Below are positions 1 through 64,000 of a DNA stretch of 64,000 bases, in pieces. Each line of letters starts with the position of its first letter. The first letter of the stretch is position 1. The notes under the pieces were generated by a model. It was not told the origin of the DNA. It did not search any database and saw nothing but the letters and a program-made list of their open reading frames with translations. Origin of the DNA: a virus; the IMG/VR virus record IMGVR_UViG_3300045988_097776. One strand, 5' to 3'. The position numbers and the translations under genes are program-made.

Positions 1-51
1 CAAATTTTTGGGCAATTATTAATAAATAAAATTGCCAATTTCTCAAATATC

Positions 52-690
52 TATGAGGTGATAAAGGTGTTATATGGATACGCTAGAGTTAGTTCTAAAG
101 ATTAGAATCTAGACCGCTAGATTTTAGCTTTAAAAGACGCTGGAGTGCAAGAAGAAAATATCTTCATAGATAAATAGTCAGGAAAAGATTTTAATAGGCC
201 CTCCTATCAAAAAATGATAAATACTGTGACTTCAGGAGATATGATTCTCCTGAAGTCCATTGATAGGTTGGGACGCAACTATTCTGAAATCCTCGAATAG
301 TGGAGCTTAATTACTAAAACCAAGAATGTTGATATAAAAGTTCTCGATATGCCACTTTTAGATACTTCATATTGCAAGGATATTATGGGCACTTTTATAT
401 CTGATTTAGTCTTACAAATTTTATCTTTTTAGGCTGAGCAAGAGAGAACCTATATAAAACAACGACAAGCTGAGGGAATCGCGGCTGCCAAATAGAAAGG
501 AGTAAAATTTGGTAGACCAAGAAAAGATCTTCCAGATAACTTTGATGAGCTATATGACCGATATTTACATAATGAACCCATTACAAGATTAGCGAAAGAA
601 TGTCAAGGTATGTCTGAGAGTACACTTAGATTAAGAATTTATGAACGTCAATAGAACGATCGTTTGAATGGAAATCCGCAGGTCAAATAA
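52..690 (+). CDS. serine recombinase (resolvase/invertase family), TAG=Gln
   Basis: From ATG 52 the frame reads [64 protein letters not shown]. It has 7 in-frame TAGs, two of them at the invariant Gln of the STxDQ and LDxQ motifs. Stop is TAA 688-690. Confidence 0.8.
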
Positions 691-741
691 AGTTAAACCA
701 TCTTCCTCTTGTTTTATATATAATATAAAGGAGGAATTAAT

Positions 742-1131
742 ATGCCTGAAATTGTTATTCAAATATTCTAGCTTTGTATTCTTCCTCTGCTTGGTATTTT
801 AACAAAATATCTCATAGATTTCCTCTCTGCTAAACGAGATGAGTTAAATTCTAAGACAGAGAATGAAACAGCTTAGAAATACACCACTATGATATTTGAT
901 ACTATTACTAAATGTGTAATAGCTACAAATCAGACTTATGTTAATAGCTTAAAAGAACAAGGTGCTTTTGATGCTGAGGCTCAAAAAATTGCATTTGATA
1001 AGACTATGGAATCTGTATTAGAGATCTTATCATCTGATGCAAAACAATATATTATTGAGACAACTGGCGACTTAAATACTTACCTAACTAATCTCATTGA
1101 AGCCGCGGTTAATGAAAATAGAGCATCATGA
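742..1131 (+). CDS. small membrane protein, holin-like (N-terminal TM helix)
   Basis: RBS AAGGAGG at 729-735 and ATG at 742. Hydrophobic N-terminus IVIQIFQLCILPLLGIL. Two in-frame TAGs join it to ORF 889..1131. Confidence 0.45.
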
Positions 1132-1267
1132 TATAATGGGGTTACTATGCCCCATTATATTTTTATACTAAAATTGGCAAAAATTTTGGCAAAATAGTAA
1201 AATTATCTTTGCCAAAATTTTATATAATAATGAAAGGCCAAGGGAATATTTTAAAGGAGGTAAAACT

Positions 1268-1693
1268 ATGGCAGTTAATTATCCATACTATATACCACAA
1301 CAATAGCAACCTTAGTATGCGGCAATCCCTTATGCTCCGCAACAAAGAATGCCCTATGTGGAATAGCCCTAGATTGGAATTAAAGGTCGCCCAGTTTCTT
1401 CAATAGAAGAAGTAAAGGCAACTAGCATTGACTTTGATGGTTCTGTATTTTTCTTTCCTGATTTAGCTAATAAAAAAATATATACAAAATAGATAAATTT
1501 AGATGGAACTTCAACACTTAATGTTTATGAATTAAAAAATATTCCGATTGAAACAGTTGTCAATCCTTCTTAGTTTGTTACTAGAGAAGAATTTGAAACC
1601 GTACTTGCTCAATTAAAAGAAAAAATTGCGCCATAGGCAAATAAATAGCCTACAGCGCAATAGCAGGAATCAAAGCCAAAATTAGATTTTTAA
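1268..1693 (+). CDS. Gln/Tyr-rich hypothetical protein (spore-coat-like composition)
   Basis: RBS AAGGAGG and ATG at 1268. Starts MAVNYPYYIPQQQQPQYAAIPYAPQQ, with many of the Q residues encoded by TAG. Stop is TAA 1691-1693. Confidence 0.45.
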
Positions 1694-1705
1694 GGAGCCG
1701 ATAAA

Positions 1706-1939
1706 ATGAATCCAATGTAGTTAATTCAAATGATTAGGAATGGATAGAATCCTCAATAGCTAACTCTAAATATATTAGAAAGTTAGATGGGGAATAATCC
1801 GTTTGGAGCTAATTTGTTAGATCTTGCCAAATAGAATAAAACCGAAGAGATTGAACAAATAGCTAGAAATCTTTTATCCCAAAGAGGATTAAATTATGAC
1901 AAGGAGTTTGCTGACTTTAAGAAAATGCTCGGCCTTTAA
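1706..1939 (+). CDS. small hypothetical protein
   Basis: ATG at 1706 after AAGGAG. About 77 aa with several in-frame TAGs. Stop is TAA 1937-1939. Confidence 0.35.
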
Positions 1940-1964
1940 TAATTTTCTTAAAGGAGGAACTTAA

Positions 1965-2870
1965 ATGTTCAATTCTAACAATGGATACTCTTTAGCTGAT
2001 ATTGCTGCTGCTACAGGTGGCAATGATCGTAACAATGGCGGAATTTGGAACGACGGAGGAGCTTGGTGGATTATAATTCTATTCTTATTCTGCTTCTCTG
2101 GATGGGGAAATGGATTTGGCGGTTTTGGTGGATATGGAGCCAACAGTAATGGTCTGGGTTCTCCTTCTGGTCAAGGTTGGGCAACTCGCGCAGACATTAA
2201 TGAAGGTTTTGCTTTCCAAAATCTACAGTCTGGAATTAATTCTATCCAGTAGGGAATCTGTGATAGCACATATGCTTTAAATAATGCTTTAACAAATGGT
2301 TTCCATGGAGTAGACAACGCAGTATGCAATCTTGGATATCAGACACAGCAAGGTTTCAATAGCACTAATGTAGCTTTAATGCAGGGTCAAAATGCTTTAG
2401 CTACACAGCTTTCTAACTGTTGTTGTGATACAAAATCTGCAATTCAGCAAGCAAGTTTTGATAATCTCACAAATCAAAATGCTATTTCTCGTCAAATTGC
2501 AGATTGTTGCTGCGAGACTGGTCGTCAGATTGAGAGAGGTTTTGCCGACGTCAACTACAATCTAGCGACTAATACTAATGCACTACAGACTTCTATGGCC
2601 AATAATACTCGTGATATTATTGACAGTCAAAATGCTGGAACTCGTGCAATTCTTGATTATCTCTGCCAGGAGAAAATCTCTGATTTGCAAAACGAGAATC
2701 AGGCCCTTCGTCTCGCTGCTTCTCAACAAGCTCAAAATAACTTTATTACAGCTAACCAAGAAGCTCAAACTGCGGAGCTTATTCGTAGATTAGGACGTGA
2801 TAATCCAATTCCCGCTTATGTAGTACCAAACCCCAACTGTTGCTATAGCATGAGTAATTGCGGGTGTTAA
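1965..2870 (+). CDS. Gly-rich/Cys-rich membrane-associated hypothetical protein
   Basis: ORFs 1965..2252 and 2379..2870 share a frame and are joined by TAG 2250-2252. Glycine-rich N-terminus with a TM segment, then a CCC/CCY-rich C-terminus. Confidence 0.5.
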
Positions 2871-62886: not shown

Positions 62887-62906
62887 CTTTAAAATGCCTC
62901 CTTATT

Positions 62907-63467
62907 TTAGTCTACTGCTGTCCCACAGTTTAATATTAAAGTAAAACCTTCAACATCCACTATTTTATCAAGTCCTACAGAATTAATTTCTCCGGTTCCA
63001 TCTGAAAGTATTTTTATCTAGTTATTCTAACTACTCCCCTTAATTAAACCAAGATTTTCTTCTGTTCCCGCCGGAATAGTAACTTTATTATCTTCAACCG
63101 GCAAATCTTTATTTCCGATAGAGATAGTTTCTATTACTTTATCCTAAGATATTGGAGTATACCACTCTAATGTGCCATCTTCTCTTTTTCTAATAGATTG
63201 CCCTGTTGATGCTTCTGCAAATCCTTTTAATGAAATCTGTCCAATTCCATCAATAACAATAGATTGATTGTCTACATCAACATTTACCAAACTACTATTT
63301 ATATATTTTAACTATTTCCACTCGGTGGCTCCATCTCCAATTTTTAACTTTCCAGTATCTATTTCAAATCCCGGCTCACCTTGACGAAGAATTGGATTTA
63401 ATTCGGTCCACTTCTCTGATGTTCCTCGCTTGAACTAAAATATTGTTTTATAAACAACTTCAGCCAA
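62907..63467 (-). CDS. tail-fibre-like protein with the same N-terminal module (5 in-frame TAGs)
   Basis: TTG start 63465-63467 after AGGAGGGAG. Reads EKWTELNPILRQGEPGFEIDTGKLKIGDGATEW. Stop TAA 62907-62909 precedes the RBS and ATG of gene 62886. Confidence 0.45.
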
Positions 63468-63481
63468 AGTCACTCCCTCCT

Positions 63482-63739
63482 TTAGCCAATTAGTCCGCCA
63501 TCATAAATAATAGTTGTATCTTCTGGAGGAAGAGGCTAATCTCCGCCTCCACCAGAGGGCTACAACACCCATTCATGATCAGAATTGAGAATATATTTAT
63601 TTCCATTTTCAATTACATATGCCGAACTGCCTGGCTTTCGGTTTGTAGGGAGATTAGCAACATCACTTTGGTAATCACATAAAAAATGAATCGCGCCATA
63701 TATAATTTTATTGGCTGTATTTTTACCAACAGTAATCAT
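63482..63739 (-). CDS. hypothetical (structural?) protein, 85 aa (2 in-frame TAGs)
   Basis: RBS AAAGGAG and ATG 63737-63739. Reads MITVGKNTANKIIYGAIHFLCDYQSD. Confidence 0.4.
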
Positions 63740-63850
63740 ACTTATTCTCCTTTCTTTAAAGAGTAGAGAAAATTATCTCTCTTTATACTATATAACAATA
63801 ATGACAAAAGGTTTTACATAAATTGTCCAAAGCCTATTTTTGAAAGAAAA

Positions 63851-63880
63851 ATTTGGTGGGCCTGTGCGAACGAAAACTCG
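63851..63880. other. conserved intergenic box, copy 2
   Basis: GGTGGGCCTGTGCGAACGAAAACTCGGAG, matching copy 1 at 39931-39960. It is followed by the terminator hairpin at 63898-63935. Confidence 0.5.
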
Positions 63881-63897
63881 GAGCAGGACGGGTAAAC

Positions 63898-63935
63898 AGA
63901 AAGAGGGGCTACCTATTTGGTAGCCCCTCTAGGGG
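63898..63935 (-). terminator. terminator hairpin
   Basis: AGAGGGGCTACC tatt TGGTAGCCCCTCT. Confidence 0.55.
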
Positions 63936-64000
63936 ATTGGAATTTTGCAGAACTCCAATCATACATATTACATTTATAAATGAAATATATATAAACACCG

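Follow-up and report, generated by a model that had tools for sequence, protein, structure and literature searches.

Is TAG a stop codon in the phage whose DNA is held as IMG/VR virus record IMGVR_UViG_3300045988_097776 and, if it is not, which amino acid does it specify and by what means is it decoded? The stretch analysed here, referred to as the window, comprises 64,000 nucleotides (64 kb) with a guanine-cytosine (GC) content of 35.4% and is a portion of a large gut-type phage genome, with genes oriented on the plus strand to about 4.2 kb and on the minus strand from there to the window end. An original prediction, made from the sequence alone, had proposed that TAG is read as glutamine (Gln) throughout. 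TAG is a sense codon in this phage, and it is very probable that UAG is decoded as Gln by a phage-encoded tRNA with the anticodon CUA, termed tRNA(CUA), with TAG acting as a third Gln codon and TAA and TGA as the sole terminators.

A curated set of 78 genes (19,504 codons) was used for the window. In-frame TAG occurs 125 times and is found in 35 of the 78 genes, where about 30 had been predicted; neither TAA nor TGA occurs in frame in any of them. A greedy open reading frame (ORF) model put coding density at 0.816 under code 11; reading TAG as sense brought it to 0.947, and reading TGA as sense only to 0.824. The change from table 11 to table 15, proposed in advance as a check, raised the density by 13 points and restored full-length domain architectures. 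The terminal stops were likewise as expected (TAA in 58 genes, TGA in 20 and TAG in none), a tally that is partly a consequence of the way in which the models were constructed. The TAG codons are evenly distributed along the genes without piling near the 3' ends, and therefore they are not terminators with short spurious extensions behind them. Even for TAGs lying 4–7 codons before the gene end (NrdG, RecJ-like and RuvC), the residues downstream still align with those of relatives. In two genes, 46352-46834 and 6549-6854, a lone TAG stands at codon 4 or 5, perhaps upstream of the true start.

TAG was translated as X in the domain scans to guard against bias, and Pfam and PHROGs domain matches cross the TAG positions with near-complete profile coverage. 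This holds for the genes that the original prediction had listed as split by TAG, namely DNA polymerase III (Pol III) alpha, DnaB, the DHH exonuclease, NrdG, guanylate kinase (Gmk), the endolysin, the tail fibres and the nucleases. Table 11 would cut Pol III alpha to 926 amino acids (aa), and on the coding strand of 5242-5907, 27413-28324 and 48237-49100 it leaves only pieces of 33–68 aa, the fragmentation foreseen for these three loci; at 5242-5907 the ORFs do not exceed 46 aa and the gene is not callable. Splitting under table 11 is also what would be seen if the TAGs were genuine stops and the genes pseudogenes or fragments, or if sequencing or assembly errors had broken them. Scarcely any credence can be given to this explanation, as the sole interrupter is TAG and never TAA or TGA, homology runs on in frame at both sides of the TAGs, and the essential Pol III alpha, DnaB and endolysin would all be broken. 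Furthermore, all 115 aligned TAG codons are kept in copies of at least 95% identity on independent contigs, with many kept in remoter relatives, and a cognate suppressor tRNA is encoded.

The meaning of the codon was approached by fetching 156 related IMG/VR loci and comparing them codon by codon with the window, by which 118 of the 125 TAG sites were alignable to related phages and hence informative. The plurality residue at these sites was Gln in 57, lysine (Lys) in 14 and glutamate (Glu) in 7, against a background of 3.6% Gln (binomial p~1e-49), which bears out the Gln enrichment that had been put forward as a check. In relatives at 80–95% protein identity, the codon found opposite the window's TAG was TAG in 39 cases, CAA in 29, CAG in 5 and another codon in 13, as counted over all stop-to-stop ORFs rather than the curated set (Gln background there 3.4%). 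A likelihood test, in which the spectrum of substitutions for each amino acid was taken from the codons for it in these same genes and alignments, gave the highest log-likelihood for Gln (-244.9) with Lys next (-391.9), a gap of 147 units. The spectrum at TAG sites (Q.48, K.12, E.06) closely follows the one seen at genuine Gln codons (Q.59, K.08, E.07). The base following in-frame TAG differed weakly from that following CAA/CAG (p=0.02).

Conserved motifs point to the same amino acid. Homologues in the PDB carry Gln at the TAG positions in the resolvase motifs SSxDQ, LxRQ and KQSG, in RHRxxxxSQ of ThyX, in HRAQGS of the RecD-like helicase and in LEQRL of Gmk, while the PDB alignment of NrdG stops short of its TAG positions. 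In the serine recombinase, the TAGs at nucleotides (nt) 103 and 118 fall on the Q of YxRVSSxxQ and on the next conserved Q, both of which are Q in the Sin/Bin3 structure 2r0q; among 22 relatives, the first site is Q in 21, and the second is Q in 5 and TAG in the other 17. The placement of these TAGs on motif glutamines was thus rightly predicted, whereas the numbers 103 and 118 are nucleotide positions and not codon numbers as had been stated. The helicase TAG at 15287-15289, between RA and GS as had been noted, aligns with Q in the two PDB helicases compared and in all 82 relatives, and at the ThyX TAG that follows RHR the predicted Gln is present in the four PDB alignments displayed and in five of five relatives. 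Position X151 of NrdG is Q in 66 of 82 relatives, Q stands at X129 of Gmk in 65 of 87 relatives as well as in the mouse enzyme (1lvg), and codon 927 of Pol III alpha shows Q in 41, K in 20 and R in 18. One motif did not survive, as the QRRW proposed for a GIY-YIG enzyme at 5242-5907 meets N or E in five relatives, and the Pfam scan found no GIY-YIG domain in that protein even at E<=0.1.

These alignments show the meaning of TAG to be Gln. That TAG is sense but stands for another amino acid (Lys, Glu, leucine, serine, tryptophan, tyrosine or pyrrolysine) is highly improbable. Lys or Glu is in plurality at 21 of the 118 sites, but these secondary peaks are the same as at true Gln codons, Gln leads Lys in the likelihood by the gap given above, and invariant catalytic-motif positions are Q in PDB homologues. 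Pyrrolysine is suggested by the label "tRNA-Pyl" that ARAGORN attached to tRNA(CUA), which derives from the anticodon alone. tRNA-Pyl has an atypical architecture, unlike the phage tRNA, which is an ordinary cloverleaf; moreover, no gene of at least 250 aa in the window resembles PylS or PylBCD.

tRNA(CUA) presents a canonical cloverleaf with normal loops and matches the standard tRNA model over its whole length; it carries a U1.U72 mismatch, G2-C71, G10, U35, A37, G73 and an encoded CCA. The features by which tRNA-Gln is recognised in E. coli by glutaminyl-tRNA synthetase (GlnRS) are an easily opened 1:72 pair, G73 and U35. The tRNA(CUA) gene is syntenic in relatives L129-L135 and L143, and the suppressors of three divergent relatives retain the unpaired 1:72 and G73 while the acceptor stem is otherwise altered by compensatory substitutions. 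With the anticodon masked, tRNA(CUA) is 85% identical to one Sup-CTA tRNA of phage phAss-1; a Sup-CTA gene of that phage is reported to type as Gln with tRNAscan-SE (Babkin et al., PMC10607447). A perfect sigma-70 consensus lies upstream of gene 60198-60536 and of tRNA(CUA); this is a pattern match, and the sequence is a putative promoter.

The nearest classical counterpart is the supE-type tRNA-Gln(CUA) of E. coli, likewise an elongator with anticodon CUA which inserts Gln at UAG against release factor 1 (RF1) and which has in common with tRNA(CUA) U35, G73 and a 1:72 position that is weak or unpaired. It differs in that tRNA(CUA) is phage-encoded as a conserved dedicated gene, has U1.U72 and not U1-A72 and C3-G70 and not G3-C70, and serves genome-wide decoding of 125 or more codons in place of leaky suppression. 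Some variation of the tRNAs was seen among the relatives. L131 carries at 6344-6434 a CUA suppressor of 91 nt, in whose variable region about 16 nt are inserted; L134/L135 carry two distinct CUA tRNAs (3901-3975 and 4174-4248), with G1.U72 in one and U1.U72 in the other; and the tRNA-Cys of the closest relatives (L129/L130/L132/L143) has an inserted arm and a length of 87 nt, where that of the window measures 77 nt.

Of all Gln-family codons, 17% are TAG; use of TAG "throughout", as the original prediction had it, is not what the genes show. Genes without TAG number 39, where random placement would leave 21.9 +/- 2.9 (p<5e-5). The TAG share is.48 in recombination/repair nucleases,.45 in homing/HNH endonucleases,.39 in lysis genes and.34 in tail-fibre genes, falling to.14 in nucleotide metabolism,.05 in replication genes and.01 in 14 large genes of a block of nicotinamide adenine dinucleotide (NAD) salvage, tRNA-repair and auxiliary functions. 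Single genes that stand out are the DHH exonuclease (0.46, Bonferroni p=0.019) and the endolysin (0.48, Bonferroni p=0.043). The concentration in lysis, tail-fibre and endonuclease genes is as described for phages using code 15. The nearly TAG-free block holds the genes for PhoH, phosphoesterases, a kinase, Thg1-like, NadE-like, NAMPT, YqeY-like and Prs proteins, an RNA ligase, a nucleotidyltransferase, and cREC_REC, Major Vault Protein (MVP)-like and DUF2828 proteins; it adjoins the tRNA cluster, with which the TAG-poor stretch reaches about 24 kb.

Five free-standing homing/HNH/GIY-YIG endonuclease genes sit between conserved genes (Table 1). Four of the five rank with the genes richest in TAG, and two lie within the otherwise TAG-free block; a similar case is one intron endonuclease in Agate phages (Borges et al., bioRxiv 10.1101/2021.08.26.457843). 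A second Phage_lysozyme2-domain protein, encoded in the replication region, has no TAG, against 11 in the endolysin, whose C-terminus may, judged by eye, be an SLH domain.

In the mechanism proposed here, tRNA(CUA) would be charged with Gln, presumably by the host's Gln-tRNA pathway, and would outcompete RF1 at UAG. Genes almost without TAG could be translated before the suppressor accumulates, an early-translatable set that would comprise the NAD-salvage/tRNA-repair/auxiliary block, the flanks of the tRNA cluster, NrdD, ligase, topoisomerase and primase. The TAG-rich endolysin, holin, tail fibres, homing endonucleases and recombination nucleases would become full-length only after the suppressor has accumulated. 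A temporal-gating model has been published for recoded phages (Borges et al., bioRxiv 10.1101/2021.08.26.457843), and the gene layout fits it, with the timing being a prediction from sequence.

Gene history or expression level, and not temporal regulation, may underlie the uneven placement of TAG; this is a possible if somewhat unlikely account, and it concerns the distribution only. It would have the TAG-free auxiliary genes as recent acquisitions from standard-code sources, or as highly expressed genes avoiding an inefficiently decoded codon, and the homing endonucleases as TAG-rich through circulation among recoded phages. In agreement with it, the block consists mostly of accessory metabolic genes, the most TAG-biased classes include mobile endonucleases, and TAG is found too in replication genes, whose products are required ahead of late functions. 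The block is also mosaic, as judged from contig IMGVR_UViG_3300045988_084596 (loci L101/L143), on which PhoH is 100% and DHH 98% identical to the window while NAMPT is at 77%, the MVP-like protein at 84% and YqeY at 85%; such a pattern suggests recent module exchange within the population. On the other hand, the bias towards lysis, structural and endonuclease genes recurs independently in crAss-like and Agate phages (Borges et al.), and the suppressor tRNA gene belongs to the TAG-free part and is preceded by a perfect sigma-70 consensus, which is the arrangement a switch model would call for. The historical or expression-based account and temporal regulation are not mutually exclusive.

Several points weigh against decoding of UAG as Gln by a phage-encoded suppressor, or against its use as a late switch. 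Gene models and coding densities were obtained with a simple greedy ORF procedure in place of a trained gene finder. At 52% of the TAG sites the alignment is chiefly with residues other than Gln, which is as expected of variable positions, true Gln codons showing 41%. The Gln identity of tRNA(CUA) is argued from its resemblance in identity elements and its homology to a published suppressor. No release factor 2 (RF2), GlnRS or other aminoacyl-tRNA synthetase was found among the scanned genes of at least 250 aa in the window, itself part of the genome. Recoding is not confined to late genes, as Pol III alpha, DnaB, NrdG, Gmk and ThyX also carry TAG; since Pol III alpha and DnaB hold 1–2 TAGs, suppression would have to be effective at the latest when replication takes place, ahead of late functions. 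Lastly, use of the standard code by the host is presumed.

This last point, together with TAG being nowhere needed as a terminator in the window, is compatible with a host which itself reads UAG as Gln and whose code the phage mirrors, with no phage-driven switch. Such a situation is very unlikely: the phage has its own suppressor tRNA, TAG is very unevenly used (1 TAG against 130 CAA/CAG in 14 large genes of the block, besides the excess of TAG-less genes), and we know of no bacterium that uses TAG as Gln. By comparison, code-25 phages that share the code of a recoded host have in-frame recoded stops in about 90% of their genes (Borges et al.).

Recoding extends beyond the window. Related IMG/VR contigs reach about 240 kb, the closest relatives lying on contigs of about 96–146 kb, and 105 of the 152 related loci analysed gain at least 0.05 in coding density with TAG as sense, so that recoding is a clade-wide trait. 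Remoter members (L007, L009, L017, L019, L053, L058 and others, on contigs of about 120–195 kb with DHH at about 49% identity) show no density gain from TAG as sense in the homologous replication region, and TAG seldom ends their genes. The gene ends of locally unrecoded relatives are TAA in 317, TGA in 68 and TAG in 20 (TAG 5%); either not all members of the clade use one code, or the regions compared are TAG-free portions of recoded genomes.

Phages of this kind are well documented. A survey covered 473 recoded gut phages, in which TAG aligns with Gln, suppressor tRNAs occur in about 40% of TAG-recoded genomes, lysis genes and an intron endonuclease are preferentially recoded, and TAG stops are depleted in low-GC standard-code relatives (Borges et al., bioRxiv 10.1101/2021.08.26.457843). 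At the protein level, code 15 has been validated only for crAss-like phages, by metaproteomics (Peters et al., PMC9523058), and the NCBI taxonomy has a node "Caudoviricetes code 15 clade" which includes phAss-1. With the known code-15 phages (crAss-like, Lak, Garnet, Amethyst, Jade, Sapphire and Agate clades), the window shares the density gain with TAG as sense, the alignment of TAG with Gln, tRNA(CUA), low GC, rarity of TAG terminators even in seemingly standard-coded relatives, preferential recoding of lysis genes and homing endonuclease, and a suppressor tRNA in standard-code sequence. It differs in the SPbeta/YorL-like replication module of its lineage (the terminase lies outside the window), in the few TAGs of its replication genes, a trait that varies between clades in Borges et al., and in showing, among the scanned genes of at least 250 aa, neither RF2 nor an aminoacyl-tRNA synthetase, which are known from few clades. 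Pol III alpha is about 42% identical to YorL of SPbeta and SPbeta-like Bacillus phages and to the polymerases of Enterococcus phages of about 140 kb, and it aligns over its full length with the phAss-1 polymerase. The SPbeta-like replication module suggests a Firmicutes host.

The closest comparison in the literature is with phAss-1 (OQ749652), which is from the human gut, and the wider group including BK048656_ctOa11 (Babkin et al. 2023, PMC10607447; Santos et al. 2023, bioRxiv 10.1101/2023.11.10.566534). Pol III alpha, NrdD/NrdG, ThyX, NAMPT-Prs and Sup-CTA tRNAs are common to phAss-1 and the window. In contrast, homologues exist for only 24 of the 78 window genes at 25–65% amino-acid identity, GC is 44.5% in phAss-1, and it has 36 tRNAs with three suppressors where the window has four tRNAs with one. 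Megablast of 28–50 kb of the window against deposited phages, a collection that includes OQ749652, gave no match. Given this lack of a match and the low proportion and identity of shared genes, the window does not belong to the genus of phAss-1 (proposed Phassvirus), for which a nucleotide identity of around 80% or more and common synteny would be expected, and any relation is distant at best. ctOa11 is listed as TAG-recoded in the phAss-1 paper (Babkin et al., PMC10607447); as it is also reported to carry an MVP gene like that of the window, the lineage has probably already been touched by the literature.

Table 1. Coordinates of the TAG-bearing genes, tRNA genes and neighbouring features of the window
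Feature	Position	Strand	TAG codons	Evidence and remarks
Serine recombinase (resolvase/invertase type)	58-690	+	7	Pfam Resolvase 2-144/145
Holin	742-1131	+	2	phrog_13712, 1.8e-32
Small protein without assigned function	1268-1693	+	9	Relatives Q at most sites
Small protein without assigned function	1706-1939	+	5	Relatives Q at most sites
Gene without assigned function	1965-2870	+	1	
Gene without assigned function	2899-3321	+	1	
Gene without assigned function	3324-3926	+	1	
Protein without assigned function	4265-4696	-	1	Q in 35/48 relatives
RuvC-like resolvase	4767-5273	-	7	Pfam RuvC 2-148/148
Homing endonuclease	5242-5907	-	7	phrog_314 1.7e-29; weak GIY-YIG match
Membrane protein	7437-7979	-	1	
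NrdG activase	7976-8449	-	2	Pfam Fer4_12/Radical_SAM
Guanylate kinase (Gmk)	10693-11244	-	3	Pfam
DNA polymerase III alpha (YorL-like), 1300 aa	11213-15115	-	1 (codon 927)	Pfam PHP, DNA_pol3_alpha, finger domains
RecD-like SF1 helicase	15158-16264	-	2	Pfam, PDB alignment
HNH endonuclease	16335-16934	-	1	phrog_2255
Second Phage_lysozyme2-domain protein	17045-17848	-	0	
DHH/DHHA1/RecJ_OB exonuclease	17852-19603	-	13	Pfam
DnaB helicase	21183-22736	-	2	Pfam
AAA_24 ATPase	23342-24283	-	2	Pfam
ThyX	26506-27132	-	3	Pfam Thy1; PDB alignment
GIY-YIG endonuclease	27413-28324	-	10	Pfam GIY-YIG; table-11 pieces <=68 aa; TAG share 0.56
Small gene	28664-28870	-	3	Adjoins GIY-YIG endonuclease region
Transmembrane protein of lysis cluster	35190-35531	-	1	
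Endolysin	35533-36939	-	11	Phage_lysozyme2 + Amidase_2
NAGPA+SPOR protein of lysis cluster	36942-37796	-	2	
Nearly TAG-free block, two endonuclease genes excepted	37850-59009	-		1 TAG vs 130 CAA/CAG in 14 large genes; Fisher p=5.8e-11
HNH/homing endonuclease-like gene	40020-40766	-	5	phrog_374, phrog_559; inside TAG-free block
Phosphoesterase	40804-41358	-		Repair-like set
AAA_33/KTI12-like kinase	41355-41888	-		Repair-like set
Thg1-like guanylyltransferase	41950-42837	-		Repair-like set
Phosphoesterase	42788-43522	-		Repair-like set
NadE-like	43586-44308	-		NAD-salvage set
NAMPT	44314-45903	-		NAD-salvage set
YqeY-like protein	46352-46801	-		PF09424 41 bits, profile 2-143/143
Prs	46798-47613	-		NAD-salvage set
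Homologue of annotated nicotinamidase of phAss-1	47614-48189	-		NAD-salvage set
HNH/homing endonuclease-like gene	48237-49100	-	6	phrog_374 2e-49; inside TAG-free block; table-11 pieces <=39 aa
RNA ligase	49195-50469	-	1	Pfam RNA_ligase; repair-like set
Phosphoesterase	51868-52737	-		Repair-like set
Nucleotidyltransferase	52734-53531	-		Repair-like set
cREC_REC domain protein	53949-54275	-		Repair-like set
MVP-like protein, 811 aa	54671-57106	-	0	
DUF2828+DUF7788 protein, 507 aa	57486-59009	-		PHROGs "RNA-binding protein"
tRNA cluster Ser(UGA), Sup(CUA), Leu(CAA), Cys(GCA)	59139-60853	-		ARAGORN, Rfam; within almost TAG-free part
Suppressor tRNA, anticodon CUA	60031-60105	-		ARAGORN; Rfam tRNA 61.6 bits
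Perfect sigma-70 consensus TTGACA-17-TATAAT with TG	60549-60577	-		Consensus scan, 12/12 matches
Tail-fibre-like gene	61549-62886	-	3	Pfam Mtd_N
Tail-fibre-like gene	62907-63473	-	5	Pfam Mtd_N
Tail-fibre-like gene	63482-63739	-	2	Pfam Mtd_N
Tail-fibre-like gene	63783-63998	-	2	Pfam Mtd_N

Directly downstream of the tRNA cluster stand the DUF2828 and MVP-like genes, the former upstream of the latter. The MVP-like product is homologous to the eukaryotic Major Vault Protein, as seen from Pfam MVP_shoulder (8e-18) and Vault repeats and from MVP chains in the PDB (~4e-17). A tblastn search of deposited phages with this protein returned only three huge phages, at 38% identity. Viral MVP was reported in 2023 in the gut phages ctOa11 and ct2Ri15, with no TEP1 homologue found there. 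The DUF2828/DUF7788 protein, considered as a possible TROVE/Ro60-like protein, had no PDB match by sequence or profile search, and its single-sequence AlphaFold model reached a predicted local distance difference test (pLDDT) score of 41, too low for use.

Side by side in the same block lie the NAD-salvage set, which also includes the nicotinamidase homologue, and a set resembling RNA/tRNA repair. Both are essentially TAG-free and look like candidate counter-defence modules.

The YqeY-like gene, between those for NAMPT and Prs, encodes a paralogue of the tRNA(-Gln)-binding tail of GatB. The protein is rare in deposited phages (5 records), occurs in 11 related loci, some of which show no local TAG recoding, and was not detected at E<=1e-3 in phAss-1 or other deposited code-15 phages. 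The occurrence of YqeY fails to follow recoding and lends no support to a link between the two. It is conceivable that the YqeY-like protein is a dedicated helper for charging the amber suppressor, acting with the unpaired 1:72 and G73; speculatively, it would boost Gln-tRNA(CUA) by way of the host GlnRS or of glutamyl-tRNA synthetase and GatCAB, offsetting the lost G36 identity element. Were this true, the helper would be a new kind of accessory factor in code change. A companion conjecture takes up the extreme TAG bias of four to five endonuclease genes, by which recoding might restrain selfish endonucleases or confine them to recoded genomes. Taken jointly, the two proposals are quite unlikely to hold.

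Overall, the recoding of TAG to Gln described here is a further example of the well-documented code-15 phages and not a discovery, and it opens no new question. Its practical consequence is that about 13% of the coding capacity (polymerase, helicase, endolysin, tail fibres and all homing endonucleases) is lost or fragmented under table 11, and for this reason automated annotation of the window's lineage must use table 15. The list of TAG-to-Gln phages is extended to a lineage of Firmicutes type whose replication module is SPbeta-like. In this independent lineage, recoded codons again favour lysis genes and homing endonucleases, as published for other phages, which modestly supports the view that late functions are timed by code switching.

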